64,000 bases of DNA. Source: Candidatus Omnitrophota bacterium. GTDB lineage: Bacteria; Omnitrophota; Gorgyraeia; Gygaellales; Profunditerraquicolaceae. This document shows, piece by piece, positions 8 to 15,694 of this stretch; the stretch's first letter is position 1; each line of letters opens with the position of its first letter. The translations under genes were made by a program, and so were the position numbers. The notes under the pieces were generated by a model. That model had not been told where the DNA came from and ran no database searches. It worked only from the letters and a program-made list of their open reading frames with translations. The stretch is taken from contig QZKH01000003.1 in NCBI GenBank assembly GCA_003598025.1, positions 42,048 through 106,047 on the forward strand, written 5' to 3'.

Positions 8-1759
8 ATGACCGGAGGGGTGCCGCAGGAGATAACTTATAGCGAGTTTTATAGGATCTTAAAGGACAATCCTGATAAGATAAAAACCCTGGCTAAAACA
101 GATACTGAATTGCAAGGTGTATTTGCCGATGACAGCAAATTCAAATTAACCATACCTGATAATGACCAGGAATTGCTTAGCCTTATAAGGACTAATGTTA
201 AGCATTTTGAAGTAAAACCGCTAAGGACTTTTTGGGCGGCATTGATATTTAATTTAGGCCCAATATTAATATTGATTCTATTTTGGTGGCTTATGGCTTC
301 ACGAGGCGAGCAGCTTGGCAACAGGGTCATGTCTTTTGGTAAGGTGCGGCCGAGGATGCATAATGAAAATGATTCGGGCAAAGCCACATTTAATGATGTT
401 GCAGGTGTTGACGAAGCAAAAGAAGAATTGGCAGAAGTAATTGAATTCCTCAAGGACCCGAAGAAATTCCAGAGATTGGGAGGCAAGATCCCCAAAGGCG
501 TTCTATTGGTAGGGCCGCCTGGATGCGGGAAAACTCTCATTGCCAGGGCTGTCGCCGGAGAGGCAGGAGTACCTTTTTTCAGTATTTCAGGCTCGGATTT
601 TGTTGAGATGTTTGTCGGTGTTGGAGCAAGCCGGGTAAGGGATTTATTCGAGCAGGGGAGGCGCGCGGCCAAATCTTCTTCCAAGGGCGCAATTATATTT
701 ATAGATGAAATAGATGCGGTGGGCAGGCTGCGTTTTTCCGGAATTGGCGGCGGTCATGATGAGAGAGAACAGACACTTAACGCCCTGTTAGTAGAGATGG
801 ATGGATTTGATCCTACCCAGGGGTTGATACTTATTGCGGCAACGAACAGGCCGGATACGCTTGATCCGGCTTTACTCCGTCCGGGCAGATTTGACCGGCA
901 TGTGATTGTGCATCTGCCGGATATAAAAGGCAGGGAGGAAATCCTTAAGGTGCACACCCGTAAGATCAAGGTTTCTACGAACGTAAATTTTAAGGTATTG
1001 GCAGCATCTACTCCCGGGTTTTCGGGAGCTGACCTGGCAAACCTTTGTAATGAGGCAGCTTTGCTTGCTGCTAGATTTAACAGGGAGTCCGTGGAGATGG
1101 TTGATTTTGAAAAGTCAATTGAAAGGCTGCTTATGGGCCCGGAAAAGAAAAGCAGGATTATGTCTAAAAAAGAAAAAGAGATTACCGCAGTCCATGAATC
1201 AGGGCACGCGTTACTGTCATTGCTTATACCGGAAGTAAATCCGCTTAGGAAAGTTTCCATAATTCCACGGGGTATGGCTGGCGGATATACTTTCACTCCG
1301 CCGCTGGAAGATAAACATTATTGGCTAAGGAGTGAATTGATGGGTGAAATAGCCTTGATGCTCGGAGGCAGGGCTTCTGAAGAGTTGACGTTTAATGAAG
1401 TTACAACAGGCGCGCAGAATGACCTGGAGGTTGCAACGCAGATGGCCAGAAAAATGGTATGCCAGTATGGTATGTCAAAGAGATTGGGCAATGTTACTTT
1501 AGGCAAAAGGGAAGGAATGATTTTTCTTGGAAGGGATATTGTTGAAGAGAGGAATTATAGCGAGGAAACGGCAAGAGTAATAGATGAAGAAGTAAAAAAC
1601 ATTGTTGATGATGGTTATAAGAGGGCAAAAGAGTTATTGCAGCAGGAAGGCGATAAATTGAAGGTATTGGCTAGCGCACTTATTGAGAAGGAAGTGCTTG
1701 ACGCCGAAGAAGTAAAGAAGCTCTTGGGGATTGAGAAGAAAGATAAAGACGTAGCTTGA
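8..1759 (+). CDS. ftsH: ATP-dependent zinc metalloprotease FtsH. Probably missing its N-terminus because the window starts inside the gene.
   Basis: AAA+ Walker A GPPGCGKT, second region of homology, and zinc-binding HESGHAL (HExxH). 583 aa. Confidence 0.9.
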
Positions 1760-2975: not shown

Positions 2976-3782
2976 ATGTGGAGACCGATAATTGAAATAT
3001 TTGTACTTTGGTTTGTGATTTATCATATTATCCTGTTTTTTGAGGGTACGCGCGCTGTCCAGGTATTAAGAGGGATTATCACGCTTTTGATAGCCTTCTT
3101 TTTGTTCCAGATACTCGGTTTTGAGGTTTTGGATTGGCTGTTAACCAAGCTTTTTGGTATATCAATCATAGCAATATTAATAATATTCCATCCTGAGATA
3201 AGGCAGGGTTTGGCCAGGATTGGGCAAAGGCATTTATTTGCTACTACATTAAAGGAAGAAGAAATTGACTTTATGTTGAAGCAGATACTTGAGGCGGCTA
3301 TTAATCTTTCCAAGGGCAGAATAGGCGCGCTAATAGTGATTGAAAAGAATGACCCTTTAAACGCATATATGCAAAGCGGCGTCAGTATTGATGCAAAAGT
3401 TTCCCAGGAATTAATCCAGGCAATATTTACTCCCTATAATCCATTGCATGACGGAGGCATAATTATACAGCACGGAAGGATTTCGGCAGCGGGATGCATC
3501 TTTCCATTTACTCAGAATCAAGACTTAAGCAGGATATTCGGCACAAGACATAGGGCCGCGCTTGGCTTAAGCGAGGAAACGGATGCGCTTGTAGTTATTG
3601 TCTCTGAAGAGCGGCAGGATATTTCTTTGGTTTACAGAGGCAGGCTCCACCGCGGGCTTACCCAGGATGAGATGCTTTCTAAAATAAAAGAAACACTGAA
3701 ATTAAAGAAAGAAGACAACAAAGTTAAAGAGGCGCCAGATAATGGAAATGAAGGAACTCCCGAAAATAAAAATCAGCCGTAG
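2976..3782 (+). CDS. cdaA: Diadenylate cyclase CdaA (c-di-AMP synthase). N-terminal transmembrane helices followed by a DAC domain.
   Basis: Hydrophobic N-terminus. DAC motifs DGGIIIQ, TRHRAALGLSEETDALVVIVSEER. Confidence 0.85.
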   Translation: MWRPIIEIFVLWFVIYHIILFFEGTRAVQVLRGIITLLIAFFLFQILGFEVLDWLLTKLFGISIIAILIIFHPEIRQGLARIGQRHLFATTLKEEEIDFMLKQILEAAINLSKGRIGALIVIEKNDPLNAYMQSGVSIDAKVSQELIQAIFTPYNPLHDGGIIIQHGRISAAGCIFPFTQNQDLSRIFGTRHRAALGLSEETDALVVIVSEERQDISLVYRGRLHRGLTQDEMLSKIKETLKLKKEDNKVKEAPDNGNEGTPENKNQP

Positions 3783-3786
3783 AGTT

Positions 3787-3891
3787 ATGCATTGGCTTGT
3801 GAGCCATCCTTGGCTTAAGCTTATTGCCTTGATTTTGGCAATAATAGTGTGGTTCTATGTCAGAGGGGAAATAACCCGGTTCAATTATTAA
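3787..3891 (+). pseudogene. 34-aa remnant resembling the N-terminal membrane anchor of CdaR/YbbR. A truncated cdaR, or a residual micro-ORF.
   Basis: ATG sits 4 nt after the cdaA stop. Translation by hand gives MHWLVSHPWLKLIALILAIIVWFYVRGEITRFNY* then a stop. This is the canonical cdaA-cdaR position. No YbbR domains follow. Confidence 0.4.
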
Positions 3892-3893
3892 AT

Positions 3894-4610
3894 ATGCTTA
3901 AGCTGGGAGTTAATGTTGATCATGTAGCGACAATCAGGCAGGCAAGAGGCGGTTGTTATCCTGACCCGGTTAATGCAGGGCTCATATGCGAGTCATCCGG
4001 GGCAGATAGCATAGTCGCGCATTTAAGAGAAGACAGAAGACACATTCAGGAGAGAGACCTGTTCCTTTTAAGGAAGTTGTTACGCACCAGGCTTAATCTT
4101 GAGATGTCTTGCTCTGATGAAATTGTGCGGGTGGCTCTTAAGGTTTTGCCTGACCAGGCGACTTTAGTCCCGGAAAAGAGGCAGGAGTTAACCACTGAAG
4201 GCGGGCTTGATGTGCTGGCTAATATGCCGCAGGTCATAAAAGCCTGTAGAGCGCTTAAGAATAAGAATATTGATGTAAGCATCTTTCTTGACCCCGATAA
4301 AAAACAAATTGATGCTTCTAAAAAGATCGGGGTTAAGATGATTGAATTGCATACGGGCAGGTTTGCCAATAGCCGCAATAAACAGCAGTACAATAAAAAT
4401 TTTTTAGAATTGAAAAAGGCTGCGCGTTATGCCGCAAAATGCGGCTTGCGGGTTTTTGCAGGGCATGGTTTGAATTATGATAACGTCCCGGATATAGTTA
4501 AGATAAAAGAGATCGAAGAGTTAAACATAGGCCATGCTATTATTTCCCGGGCTCTGTTCGTCGGGCTTCGGTACGCGGTAACAGAGATGAAAAATTTGAT
4601 AAAGAGATGA
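3894..4610 (+). CDS. pdxJ: Pyridoxine 5'-phosphate synthase. Start chosen at MLKLGVNVDH. The track ORF begins at 3849.
   Basis: LGVNVDHVATIRQARG N-terminal signature of the PdxJ TIM barrel. Conserved pdxJ-acpS adjacency. Confidence 0.85.
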   Translation: MLKLGVNVDHVATIRQARGGCYPDPVNAGLICESSGADSIVAHLREDRRHIQERDLFLLRKLLRTRLNLEMSCSDEIVRVALKVLPDQATLVPEKRQELTTEGGLDVLANMPQVIKACRALKNKNIDVSIFLDPDKKQIDASKKIGVKMIELHTGRFANSRNKQQYNKNFLELKKAARYAAKCGLRVFAGHGLNYDNVPDIVKIKEIEELNIGHAIISRALFVGLRYAVTEMKNLIKR

Positions 4611-4963
4611 TGGTAGGCACCGGAGTAGATATTACGGAAGTAAGAAGGCTGCGTCAGGCAGTAGATAAATGGGGCGACAGTTTCTTAAGCAGGGTATTTA
4701 CGAAAGAAGAATTAAAAAATGCCCGGGGAAGGGTAAGCCTATATCAACATCTTGCCGGCAGATTTGCGGCCAAAGAAGCGGTATTTAAAGCTTTAGGCGA
4801 TCCGGACTTGACCTGGCAGGATGTAGAGATTATTAATGACAGGCAGGGTAAACCTCATTGTAAGCTGCTTAATTATAAGAAAAAGGATGTCGATATTTTG
4901 ATATCGATCTCTCATGTAAAAAGCTATGCGGTTGCCAGCGCGATTATTACAGAGAAGACCTGA
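4607..4963 (+). CDS. acpS: Holo-[acyl-carrier-protein] synthase
   Basis: MMVGTGVDITEVRRL start and 118 aa size are typical of AcpS. The ATG overlaps the pdxJ stop. Confidence 0.85.
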   Translation: MMVGTGVDITEVRRLRQAVDKWGDSFLSRVFTKEELKNARGRVSLYQHLAGRFAAKEAVFKALGDPDLTWQDVEIINDRQGKPHCKLLNYKKKDVDILISISHVKSYAVASAIITEKT

Positions 4964-5789
4964 TGCTCATAAAGGAGATTTCGGACATATATTCATTTTG
5001 GCCGGTTCGTTGCGATTTTCCGGAGCAGCAGTTCTATGCGCAGAGGCAGCGATGCGCTGCGGGGCAGGGCTGGTAACCCTGGGGGTGCCAGAAAATGTAG
5101 CCCGTCCGATAATAAAGTTTAAGCCCAGGGAAATAATGCTCCTTCCTTTGCATGAGACAAAAGAAGGCACGTTAAGTCCGTCTGGATATAAAAAGATAAA
5201 AAATTTCGCAATTACCGCTGATATATTGGCTTTAGGGCCTGGTCTTTCTCAAAATAAATCAACCCAAACTTTAATCCGTAAGATTGTGGCCACGGTAAAT
5301 AAACCTATGGTTATCGATGCTGACGGTCTAAATGCCTTAATAGGCAACTTAGGGATTTTATCCGCTAAACCATATACGCTAAACCCTAAAATATTGACCC
5401 CTCATCCTGGAGAAATGGCAAAGCTTTTGGGCACAAGCATTAAAAAGATTCAGAAACAAAGAAAAGATGCAGCAGTAAACTTTGCTAAGAAATACAAAGT
5501 AACCGTAGTCTTAAAAGGACATAATACGATAGTCGCTGATTATAAAAATAATTTATATGTAAATAAGACCGGTAACCCCGGTATGGCTACTGCTGGAAGC
5601 GGGGATGTTTTGACTGGTATCGTGTCAGCTTTCTTAGCGCAAGGTTTGGATAGTTTTAGCGCAGCTAAATTTGGGGTGTATATTCACGGATTAGCAGGTG
5701 ATCTGGCAGCAAAAGAGAAAACGGAAATTAGCTTGATTGCTTCGGATTTAATTGGTAAAATTCCCGATGCAATAAAGATCAGTTCTTAG
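4926..5789 (+). CDS. nnrD: ADP-dependent NAD(P)H-hydrate dehydratase (YjeF C-terminal domain only)
   Basis: GHIFILAGSLRFSGAAVLCAEAAMRCGAGLVTLGVP and GNPGMATAGSGDVLTG carbohydrate-kinase-like motifs. No epimerase domain. Confidence 0.8.
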   Translation: MRLPARLLQRRPDAHKGDFGHIFILAGSLRFSGAAVLCAEAAMRCGAGLVTLGVPENVARPIIKFKPREIMLLPLHETKEGTLSPSGYKKIKNFAITADILALGPGLSQNKSTQTLIRKIVATVNKPMVIDADGLNALIGNLGILSAKPYTLNPKILTPHPGEMAKLLGTSIKKIQKQRKDAAVNFAKKYKVTVVLKGHNTIVADYKNNLYVNKTGNPGMATAGSGDVLTGIVSAFLAQGLDSFSAAKFGVYIHGLAGDLAAKEKTEISLIASDLIGKIPDAIKISS

Positions 5790-5827: not shown

Positions 5828-5900
5828 GCCGGCGTAGCTCAGTCGGTAGAGCAGCTGTTTTGTAAACAGCGGGTCGGGGGTTCGATTCCTCTCGCCGGCT
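5828..5900 (+). tRNA. tRNA-Thr (anticodon UGU)
   Basis: Cloverleaf folded by hand. Acceptor GCCGGCG/CGCCGGC, anticodon stem GCTGT/ACAGC, loop TTTGTAA, T-loop TTCGATT. 73 nt. Confidence 0.85.
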
Positions 5901-6027
5901 TAAATGAGGCCACAACTTATGGAGCAAATGAAATGAGCGAACATAAGTTGTTTGGCCGAATTTATCCCGAGTGTACGAAGCAGATTTATTGAAATCTGCG
6001 AGTGCTTACACGAGGGATGTAAAATGA

Positions 6028-6231: not shown

Positions 6232-6262
6232 GGGTCGGGGGTTCGATTCCTCTCGCCGGCTT
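6232..6262 (+). repeat. 31-nt direct repeat of the 3' end of tRNA-Thr (T-arm plus acceptor 3' strand). Partner copy at 5871-5901.
   Basis: GGGTCGGGGGTTCGATTCCTCTCGCCGGCTT is identical at both sites. 330 bp of non-coding, hairpin-rich DNA lies between them. No upstream 5' acceptor strand, so this is not a second tRNA. Confidence 0.8.
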
Positions 6263-6263
6263 T

Positions 6264-6334
6264 ACAAAGTCACCAAGTCACAAGGACACACGTCACAAGT
6301 TTATGTGACGTTGTGACTTTGTGTCATTGTGACA
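6264..6334. repeat. Family-B palindromic repeat element. Left arm of GTCACAAG/GACACA units, right arm of TGTGAC/CTTTGTG units.
   Basis: caaagtcaccaagtcacaaggacacacgtcacaag ttta tgtgacgttgtgactttgtgtcattgtgac. Confidence 0.75.
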
Positions 6335-13819: not shown

Positions 13820-14492
13820 ATTAAAGCGGGATTATCATAGGAAAAGCAAACGCCGTAAAATCAGGGTTTTAATTACCGCTGGCCCTACTTGGATTCAGCT
13901 TGACCCTGTTAGAATTATAAGTAATATTTCTACCGGTAAGACCGGACAGATGCTGGCTGAGAAGATTGCGCGGGCAGGGAATCAGGTAAAATTATTGCTC
14001 GGCCCTTCACCCTTTGGCTATAAACATAACTTTAAAGGTGTGGAAGTCCTGCGCTATATCTTTTTTAACGAACTGCGGGATAAAATAAGGAAAATCCTGC
14101 GCAAATCAAGATTTGATGTCGTAATACACTCTGCAGCTGTTTGTGATTTCTGGCCATTACAGGTTGTCCGCCATAAATTCAAATCGAGCAATAAGAAATG
14201 GGATGTTAAATTGGTGAGGACGCCCAAGATAATAAATGAAATCAAGCGTATAAGCCCGGGCCTGATGTTAGTAGGTTTTAAATTTGAACCACAAGCTTCT
14301 AAAGGCTATTTAATCAAAGAGGCTGGCATGCTCATGCGGCAGTCTGGTTCTGATATTGTAGTTGCAAATACGGTGAAAAATAATTCTTATAAAGCCTATA
14401 TTCTTGATTCAGATTCTGTACGAGGACCTTTTATTAATAAATCTGCTATGTCAGATACATTAATCAAATTAATACAGGATAAAATAAAATGA
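13809..14492 (+). CDS. coaB: Phosphopantothenate--cysteine ligase (stand-alone CoaB domain)
   Basis: ITAGPTWIQLDPVRIISNISTGKTG matches the DFP/CoaB signature ITAGPT..LDPVR.ISN.SSGK. No CoaC half. Confidence 0.8.
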   Translation: MATKLKRDYHRKSKRRKIRVLITAGPTWIQLDPVRIISNISTGKTGQMLAEKIARAGNQVKLLLGPSPFGYKHNFKGVEVLRYIFFNELRDKIRKILRKSRFDVVIHSAAVCDFWPLQVVRHKFKSSNKKWDVKLVRTPKIINEIKRISPGLMLVGFKFEPQASKGYLIKEAGMLMRQSGSDIVVANTVKNNSYKAYILDSDSVRGPFINKSAMSDTLIKLIQDKIK

Positions 14493-15694
14493 AATATATT
14501 GTATTAGTCGGAGATGGCATGGCGGATTATCAGATTGAAGAGTTAGGTAACCGCACCCCTCTGGAAGCAGCCAAGACTCCAAATATGGATTATATCTGCA
14601 AGTATGGCAAGATCGGGCTGGCTAGGACTATCCCTGAAAATATGACCCCTGCTTCTGATGTAGCCAATATCTCTATATTAGGATATAACCCTAAAGAATA
14701 CTATTCAGGCAGGGGGCCTCTTGAAGCCGCTAACTTAGGTATAGAGCTTGAAAGCGATGATGTTGCTTTCCGTTGTAATTTAGTTACAGTCCTTGATGAT
14801 ACGATGGTTGATTATAGCGCCGGTCATATAAGCTCAAGGGAAGCCGCGTTAATAATAAAATTTATTGATGATAACCTCGGCAGCAATAAGATTAAATTTT
14901 ATCCGGGTGTTGGTTACAGGCATCTGATGGTTGTAAAACGCGGCGCAGAATCTCATTGGCATGAATTAGAATGTAGGGCTCCCCACGATATTACCGGGCA
15001 GAAGATTACGAAAAATTTTCCAAGAGGCGAGGGTTCAGACAAGCTTATAAAAATAATGCAGGACTCGCGTCCCCTCCTTGAAAACCATGAGATTAATATT
15101 GTCAGGGTTGACCTTAAAGAGAACCCGGCTAATATGATCTGGTTATGGGGGCAGGGCAGGAAGCCGGCTATGCCAAAGTTCTACGATAAATACGGGATAA
15201 ATGGAAGCGTTATTTCGGCAGTCGATTTAATAAAAGGATTGGGCAGGATATTGGGCCTGGAAGTTATCAATGTGAAAGGCGCAACAGGCTATTATGATAC
15301 AGATTATTTAGGAAAGGCAAAAGCCGCTCTGGCATCTCTTAAGGATAATGATTTTGTATTTGTGCATGTGGAGGCACCCGATGAAGCGGGGCACAATGGG
15401 GACTTAAGAGAGAAGCTTACAGCCATAGAGAGATTTGATCAGCTTATCGTTGGGACGATACTCGAAGCTTTTAAGAATAGAAAGGATTTTAGGATCATGG
15501 TATTGCCGGACCATCCTACTCCCATAGCTTTAAAGACACATTCAAGTGATATGGTCCCATTTGCTGTTTTTGGAAAAGACATTGTGCCTTCAGGCGCAGG
15601 ATCGTTCAGCGAGAAAGAAGCAGCTGCATCAGGTTTTTCTTTTGAAAGAGCGCATGAGCTTATGGATTATCTTATAAAAGGCCAGTATAAATGA
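14489..15694 (+). CDS. apgM: 2,3-bisphosphoglycerate-independent phosphoglycerate mutase, archaeal-type
   Basis: MKYIVLVGDGMADY N-terminus and metalloenzyme-superfamily motifs. 401 aa. Confidence 0.85.
   Translation: MKYIVLVGDGMADYQIEELGNRTPLEAAKTPNMDYICKYGKIGLARTIPENMTPASDVANISILGYNPKEYYSGRGPLEAANLGIELESDDVAFRCNLVTVLDDTMVDYSAGHISSREAALIIKFIDDNLGSNKIKFYPGVGYRHLMVVKRGAESHWHELECRAPHDITGQKITKNFPRGEGSDKLIKIMQDSRPLLENHEINIVRVDLKENPANMIWLWGQGRKPAMPKFYDKYGINGSVISAVDLIKGLGRILGLEVINVKGATGYYDTDYLGKAKAALASLKDNDFVFVHVEAPDEAGHNGDLREKLTAIERFDQLIVGTILEAFKNRKDFRIMVLPDHPTPIALKTHSSDMVPFAVFGKDIVPSGAGSFSEKEAAASGFSFERAHELMDYLIKGQYK

Follow-up and report, generated by a model that had tools for sequence, protein, structure and literature searches.

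The short open reading frame (ORF) that lies between cdaA and pdxJ in the window analyzed here, a 64,000-nt stretch of DNA from a Candidatus Omnitrophota MAG, very probably encodes a conserved microprotein derived from CdaR, the membrane-bound regulator whose gene usually comes after cdaA. The explanation that we favor as a whole, and that we consider probable, is that this micro-ORF is an orthologue of cdaR that has lost its ectodomain and acts as a fixed subunit or modulator of CdaA, the membrane-bound diadenylate cyclase. An earlier note on this DNA had described the frame as a cdaR reduced to a membrane-anchor relic. Our analysis bears out the descent from cdaR, both by position and by sequence, and the retention of the N-terminal anchor only, but not the designation as a relic.

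The features of the locus are collected in Table 1. The CdaA protein encoded in the window is identical to RJP28691.1, its residues 5 to 233 are matched by the full-length CdaA chain 9g69_C, and the nearest related loci all belong to Omnitrophota. The order in which folP precedes cdaA also occurs in seven of the related loci used for comparison below (L083, L084, L087, and L089 to L092).

Table 1. Features of the cdaA locus in the window (positions counted from the first nucleotide of the window).
Feature	Position	Strand	Evidence and remarks
ftsH	8–1759	+	AAA and M41 protease motifs in the translation; opens the ftsH-folP-cdaA block, an order shared with L083 and L084
folP (dihydropteroate synthase), directly 5′ of cdaA	1766–2974	+	Pfam Pterin_bind 4.5e-82
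cdaA (membrane-bound diadenylate cyclase, 268 aa; N-terminal three-helix membrane domain and DAC domain)	2976–3782	+	Pfam DAC 5.9e-43, CdaA_N 1e-4
GAGG, Shine-Dalgarno-like site	3729–3732	+	read from the sequence, 9 nt 5′ of ATG 3742
Anchor-only cdaR micro-ORF, 49 aa and stop (preferred model)	3742–3891	+	homologues in 77 loci; linked to YbbR-domain CdaR by profile and gene order
Basic N-terminal arm, residues 1–21, predicted cytoplasmic	3742–3804	+	family charge bias; dN/dS ~0.40
Internal ATG (Met16), alternative initiation site	3787–3789	+	disfavored: homologues keep residues upstream
Conserved core, residues 22–43 (HPWLK motif, hydrophobic helix ~W24–V40, R-G-E exit motif)	3805–3870	+	invariant columns, codon entropy, dN/dS 0.14, AF2 helix
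Predicted periplasmic tail ITRFNY and TAA stop (3889–3891), no YbbR domain	3871–3891	+	pdxJ 2 nt on
pdxJ, next gene of the tightly packed operon	3894–4610	+	Pfam PdxJ 4.1e-98; same neighbor across related loci
acpS (holo-ACP synthase)	4607–4963	+	start overlaps pdxJ stop by 4 nt; Pfam ACPS 7.8e-16
nnrD (NAD(P)H-hydrate dehydratase), last gene of the conserved block	4926–5789	+	Pfam Carb_kinase 1.1e-58

The earlier note had read the frame as a 34-codon ORF, MHWLVSHPWLKLIALILAIIVWFYVRGEITRFNY*, at positions 3787 to 3891, beginning 4 nt past the cdaA stop codon. The reading is correct, and so is the spacing (ATG at 3787, TAG at 3780 to 3782), but the likely product is a protein of 49 amino acids that starts at 3742. 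The frame is open from this upstream ATG, which adds MEMKELPKIKISRRV in front of the 34-mer to give the full product MEMKELPKIKISRRVMHWLVSHPWLKLIALILAIIVWFYVRGEITRFNY; the first 41 nt of the longer ORF overlap the 3′ end of cdaA in another frame. In homologues, the HPW motif is preceded by a basic arm of ~18 to 20 residues, and the closest of them, P0002 (MRKIKISRKIMYWLISHPW...), aligns with window residues 8 to 24, i.e., already upstream of Met16. The start of the micro-ORF overlaps the 3′ end of cdaA in 63 of 78 loci, the commonest overlap being 8 nt, and an identical 49-aa product (P0001) is on public record as a hypothetical protein. Since the homologues share the arm, the GAGG motif is located at a distance of 9 nt, an overlap with cdaA is usual, and the public record has the same 49 aa, ATG 3742 is most likely the start codon rather than ATG 3787. 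A Shine-Dalgarno-like motif comparable to that of the window was present in just 27 of the 78 loci, so that its contribution to the choice of 3742 is modest.

To follow the micro-ORF through related genomes, we scanned one genome per GTDB species for CdaA, which yielded 80 Omnitrophota loci (L001 to L080) at 59 to 75% CdaA identity. Three of these loci end at cdaA. In every one of the 77 that extend past it, a short ORF was found between cdaA and pdxJ (32 to 56 aa, mostly 42 to 46 aa), so that conservation of the micro-ORF in relatives, a point raised in the earlier note, holds for all 77 of these loci. The core of the encoded proteins, HPWLKLIALxLAxxVWFYVxGE, is near-invariant, with 16 columns showing no variation at all (H22, P23, W24, L25, K26, L27, I28, A29, L30, A33, V36, W37, F38, Y39, V40, and E43). 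Entropy at the first, second, and third codon positions, calculated for 24 core codons in 78 sequences, was 0.74, 0.33, and 1.42 bits, respectively, i.e., approximately four times higher at the third position than at the second. The dN/dS ratio estimated by the Nei-Gojobori method for 28 orthologues of 46 codons was ~0.20 for the whole ORF, 0.14 for the core, and 0.40 for the N-terminal arm. These substitution patterns bear the mark of a translated gene that purifying selection maintains in no fewer than 77 related species. Since the stub is kept under selection in so many species, the CdaR helix is likely to have a function in itself.

The relationship to CdaR was assessed by a profile search. 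A profile built from 18 database homologues of the micro-ORF was searched against 1.84 billion representative proteins and gave 95 matches at E ≤ 1e-3, of which 85 were 31 to 83 aa long (these short representatives are counted at the level of 50%-identity clusters), nine were 112 to 156 aa long, and one, P0019, was 1745 aa long. In the proteins of 112 to 156 aa, the profile matched the extreme N terminus. Four of the nine pass the Pfam gathering score for YbbR (P0073, 29.5 bits; P0082, 26.3 bits; P0092, 32.9 bits; and P0107, 30.8 bits), and three more have weak YbbR matches. When the micro-ORF profile was compared by hhalign with 14 longer CdaR proteins (~215 to 231 aa, the size class with two YbbR domains), the two aligned anchor to anchor with a probability of 96.2% and an E value of 2.1e-9. 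The likeness to YbbR N termini proposed in the earlier note is thus upheld: the micro-ORF profile matches the anchors of YbbR-domain proteins far beyond chance. The top match of the database search, the 1745-aa protein P0019, is a repeat protein whose unit, which contains “LIQHPWLKLQ,” was matched 27 times; this match appears to be spurious and unrelated to CdaR.

The specificity of the profile was estimated with a set of 13,938 six-frame ORFs of at least 30 aa from the window and loci L001 to L088, which include many other membrane proteins. At E ≤ 10, each of 86 sources yielded a single match to the profile HMM, and the matched ORF was always the gene after cdaA. The one- and two-domain CdaR proteins were recovered in the same search, and no other membrane protein was matched. 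Scans of the 49-mer itself against Pfam and NCBIfam returned only noise (Flavi_M, 0.043; TraP, 0.1). The 49-mer escapes Pfam, since the PF07949 model covers the YbbR domain but leaves out the anchor. A word-indexed homologue search with the 49-mer alone likewise returned only short proteins, and the link to YbbR proteins became apparent only in the exhaustive profile search.

The longer relatives occupy the same genomic slot. One-YbbR proteins, which can be viewed as “mini-CdaR,” are encoded at position X of the loci L081 (P0073, 149 aa; folP?-cdaA-X-pdxJ-acpS-nnrD), L083 (P0092, 141 aa, named “CdaR family protein” by NCBI; ftsH-folP-cdaA-X-pdxJ-acpS-nnrD), L084/85 (P0114, 155 aa; ftsH-folP-cdaA-X-pdxJ-acpS), and L087 (P0082, 147 aa; folP-cdaA-X-pdxJ). 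To these we add P0122 of L086 (155 aa; X-pdxJ-acpS-nnrD, on a contig that starts inside the upstream gene), which is without a Pfam YbbR record and is matched by a YbbR-domain HMM built here at 2.6e-27. These five proteins of 141 to 155 aa share with the micro-ORF the gene order of the window (folP-cdaA-X-pdxJ-acpS) and a homologous anchor, and their CdaA proteins form a sister grade to the clade of the window; they still have one YbbR domain, whereas the window protein ends 9 residues past the helix. Locus L082 has the canonical order cdaA-cdaR-glmM and encodes a 229-aa protein with two YbbR domains (P0133). In L089/L090 (L089:807-3104), an anchor-only protein of 43 aa (P0056) is encoded in the order folP-cdaA-X-glmM-pdxJ-acpS, so that the stub fills the classical slot of cdaR, from cdaA to glmM. 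In descent and position, the micro-ORF is a CdaR orthologue, although it cannot be counted among YbbR proteins if PF07949, the domain that defines them, is the measure.

No YbbR domain can be accommodated at the locus of the window, because pdxJ follows at once: only ~6 to 9 residues remain after the helix, and the ATG of pdxJ lies 2 nt past the stop codon, in agreement with the statement of the earlier note that pdxJ comes immediately after the micro-ORF. HMMs of the YbbR portions alone detected no YbbR domain in the 64-kb window or in the flanks of 80 anchor-only loci; the same HMMs recovered every positive control, with E values from 1e-18 to 1e-36. The absence of glmM from the locus, also mentioned in the earlier note, was confirmed. 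The GlmM signature motifs SASHNP and DGDGDR were found neither in the window nor in 81 loci (822 kb in total), and pdxJ takes the place of glmM. On visual inspection, the product of a 401-aa ORF elsewhere in the window (14489 to 15694) resembles a cofactor-independent phosphoglycerate mutase and not GlmM.

With the canonical L082 as the root, a neighbor-joining tree of CdaA proteins groups the window and all loci of the HPWLK type into one clade with a bootstrap support of 99/100. Outside of this clade are the one-YbbR loci and three further short forms, those of L089 (43 aa, with glmM), L091 (37 aa), and L092 (70 aa, with a low-complexity tail). CdaA of L089 and L092 shares more identity with CdaA of the one-YbbR loci (56 to 65%) than with that of the window’s clade (50 to 52%), while CdaA of L091 is about equidistant (50 to 52% to the one-YbbR loci and 45 to 48% to the window’s clade). 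Internal bootstrap values in this outer grade are weak (26 to 63%). Since short forms are located outside of the clade and a lost YbbR domain would hardly be regained, the tree is most parsimoniously read as showing two or more independent reductions to an anchor-only CdaR, a reading that we hold with moderate confidence. The order folP-cdaA-X-glmM-pdxJ-acpS of L089/L090, the second lineage with an anchor-only CdaR, is likely ancestral, and the loss of glmM from the operon seems to have been a separate event. In Borrelia, a cdaA-ybbR-acpS order without glmM has been reported (PMC8316131). One more group, comprising P0055, P0064, P0076 (L092:1644-1856), P0091, and P0099, has an “NNFWIK” anchor and a low-complexity hydrophilic tail of 20 to 45 residues in place of YbbR. 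This “NNFWIK” subfamily could represent either an intermediate stage or a third kind of reduced CdaR. The forms found in Omnitrophota could be ordered as a natural deletion series that runs from two YbbR domains through one YbbR domain and an anchor with a disordered tail to the anchor only.

The topology of the microprotein was estimated from charge distribution and structure prediction. The net charge averaged over the family is +4.2 on the N-terminal side of the helix and −0.2 on the C-terminal side, which fits the positive-inside rule and favors an N-in orientation. AF2 predicts a helix at residues 23 to 46, with a pLDDT of ~90 over residues 23 to 42 and lower values beyond. A concatenate of CdaA and the microprotein was predicted poorly (mean pLDDT of 59.8), and solved structures include no CdaA-CdaR complex, 9G69 being a complex of CdaA with GlmM. 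Published work indicates that CdaR contacts CdaA through the transmembrane domains (PMC10243994, PMC8573169, PMC8316131) and that TMH3 mediates tetramer formation by the CdaA membrane domain, which efficient synthesis requires (PMC11686323). For full-length CdaR, both activation and inhibition of CdaA, the essential c-di-AMP cyclase, have been reported, and the mechanism has been called unclear (PMC8573169, PMC10117814, PMC13508791).

Taken with these reports, the sequence data suggest the following mode of action. As a cdaR orthologue stripped of the extracytoplasmic YbbR sensor, the protein retains the basic arm on the predicted cytoplasmic side, one transmembrane helix, and an outer tail of 6 to 9 residues. 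It would insert with the N terminus inside and the C terminus outside, and its helix would pack against the transmembrane domain of CdaA, as reported for full-length CdaR. Such packing could set or stabilize the oligomeric state of CdaA and, hence, its cyclase activity. Without an ectodomain, the microprotein would no longer report on the cell envelope and would serve CdaA as a small, fixed subunit or modulator, not as a sensor. That the microprotein still acts on CdaA through helix packing seems to us reasonably likely, if less so than its descent from CdaR. The alternative offered in the earlier note, a mini-TM peptide retained as a partner of CdaA, fits the observed conservation, and the partnership itself is what we infer. 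A broader proposition is that the CdaR helix alone is a functional and selectable subunit of CdaA, with the YbbR ectodomain an optional sensor add-on, and that the deletion series reached its end more than once; here we find belief and doubt evenly balanced.

The micro-ORF is tightly coupled to cdaA, translationally through the usual overlap of its start with the cdaA stop and, in L021, through an in-frame fusion. In this locus (L021:5962-6864), which comes from a single Omnitrophota MAG, the reading frame of cdaA continues into that of the anchor-only cdaR, so that a 300-aa CdaA::microprotein fusion is encoded. The fusion may be real or may result from an assembly or frameshift error. If real, a fusion of this Rosetta-stone type implies that CdaA and the anchor-only CdaR act together. 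It parallels the natural CdaA-CdaR fusions of streptococci (PMC10243994), except that the streptococcal fusions keep YbbR domains and that the one in L021 is a single MAG observation with a possible assembly error. The membrane domain of CdaA (residues 1 to 80, positions 2976 to 3215 of the window) is more conserved than the DAC domain (mean p-distances of 0.28 and 0.34, respectively, in 73 loci), which is unusual for a mere membrane anchor. In a mirror-tree analysis with partial Mantel tests, the microprotein correlated to the same degree with the transmembrane and DAC domains of CdaA (r = 0.51 for each) and about equally with PdxJ (r = 0.49), so that the CdaA membrane domain is not singled out.

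Conservation by itself names no partner, and the CdaR-derived microprotein could have been co-opted for another partner or role (the FtsH protein encoded upstream, an envelope protein, or membrane localization of the operon products), in which case it would no longer regulate CdaA. The lack of preference for the CdaA membrane domain in the mirror-tree analysis is compatible with such a change of role, as is the presence of ftsH in the same conserved block. However, the gene adjoins cdaA in every locus, with stop and start usually overlapping, and is joined to it in frame in L021. In addition, contact with CdaA has been reported for precisely the segment that has been kept (PMC10243994, PMC8573169), and the membrane domain of CdaA is unusually conserved, as described above. 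We therefore regard co-option as the strongest of the competing explanations, although an unlikely one.

Far less probable is a role of the DNA or RNA in which the peptide is irrelevant, i.e., as a translational-coupling spacer or a cis-acting RNA between cdaA and pdxJ. The genes are indeed packed very tightly, with an overlap at the cdaA side, a stop codon 2 nt before pdxJ in the window, and a distance to pdxJ that in most loci is between −1 and +9 nt. Yet selection acts on the amino acids: 16 columns are invariant while third codon positions are near saturation (1.42 versus 0.33 bits at second positions), and the dN/dS ratio of the core is low (0.14). No Rfam family matches the micro-ORF region, and in L089 the same peptide precedes glmM and not pdxJ.

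Still more improbable is that the frame is a functionless remnant of cdaR, a pseudogene fragment that has yet to be deleted, even though the entire YbbR part is gone and cdaR pseudogenes exist elsewhere, e.g., in L. lactis MG1363 (PMC10117814). The stub is kept in 77 of 77 species loci within a narrow range of lengths (mostly 42 to 46 aa) in a set in which CdaA has diverged to 59% identity, too far for the loci to come from near-identical strains, and 85 short representatives exist at the level of 50%-identity clusters. The substitution pattern is of the coding type, with a dN/dS ratio of ~0.2 over the whole ORF. Given purifying selection and retention, the micro-ORF is therefore not a relic in the pseudogene sense, and this part of the description in the earlier note has to be abandoned. 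Finally, the possibility that we are dealing with an unrelated small hydrophobic ORF that resembles CdaR through a generic transmembrane appearance can practically be dismissed, for, although the 49-mer has no named family in Pfam, NCBIfam, or direct word-based searches, the profile picks only genes in the CdaR position among 13,938 ORFs, the matches of 112 to 156 aa drawn from 1.84 billion proteins are mostly YbbR proteins, the hhalign E value is 2e-9, and the genomic slot is identical.

The preferred reading, an ectodomain-less CdaR that acts on CdaA, places the micro-ORF close to CdaR/YbbR proteins (PF07949; the cdaA-cdaR-glmM operons of Firmicutes and others) in several respects. Its gene lies directly after cdaA; its N-terminal anchor, [HN]-x-x-[WG]-L-K-[LI]-[IL]-[AS]-L-x-L-A...W, is homologous to theirs and, as predicted from the charge bias, may share their N-in/C-out topology; and it keeps the segment that is reported to engage the transmembrane domain of CdaA (PMC10243994). 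Unlike CdaR, it has no YbbR domain and hence no extracytoplasmic sensor, while canonical CdaR proteins have three or four such domains (PMC10243994, PMC10636490). It is also much shorter, 49 aa compared to 141 to 231 aa in the longer relatives considered here, with canonical three- and four-domain CdaR proteins larger still, and it is followed by pdxJ rather than by glmM as in the canonical module. In size, the microprotein resembles a different class of proteins. MgrB, AcrZ, and KdpF, which act on PhoQ, AcrB, and KdpABC, respectively, are single-helix modulators of less than 50 aa that are encoded next to or together with their targets and likely work through helix-helix packing. To our knowledge, none of the three arose by the trimming of a larger regulator down to its anchor, and we know of no sequence relationship between them and the micro-ORF.

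No description of an anchor-only CdaR, and no link of Omnitrophota to a reduction of cdaR, was found in the literature searched; database entries for the anchor-only forms are unnamed or labeled “hypothetical protein.” More than 85 sequence clusters that now carry this label could be annotated as anchor-only CdaR. A clade that keeps only the CdaR helix under purifying selection argues that helix-helix contact with the CdaA membrane domain matters functionally, and it would do so independently of sensing by YbbR. The natural construct of ~45 residues may offer a minimal system for studying how CdaR controls CdaA, since it isolates a single part of CdaR whose role can be cleanly tested. It also provides a clear example, among bacteria, of a microprotein that arose when a larger regulator was truncated.

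Elsewhere in the window, downstream of the conserved gene block, a direct repeat is associated with a tRNA gene. The last ~30 nt of tRNA-Thr(tgt) (5828 to 5900) together with the two following bases (5872 to 5902) are repeated at 6232 to 6262, so that ~330 nt separate the tRNA gene from a copy of its own 3′ end. The repeat looks like the attachment-site scar of an integrative element that has been mostly deleted. It is followed by GTGAC-rich inverted repeats (6264 to 6330) and then by the genes for tRNA-Tyr and tRNA-Gly.
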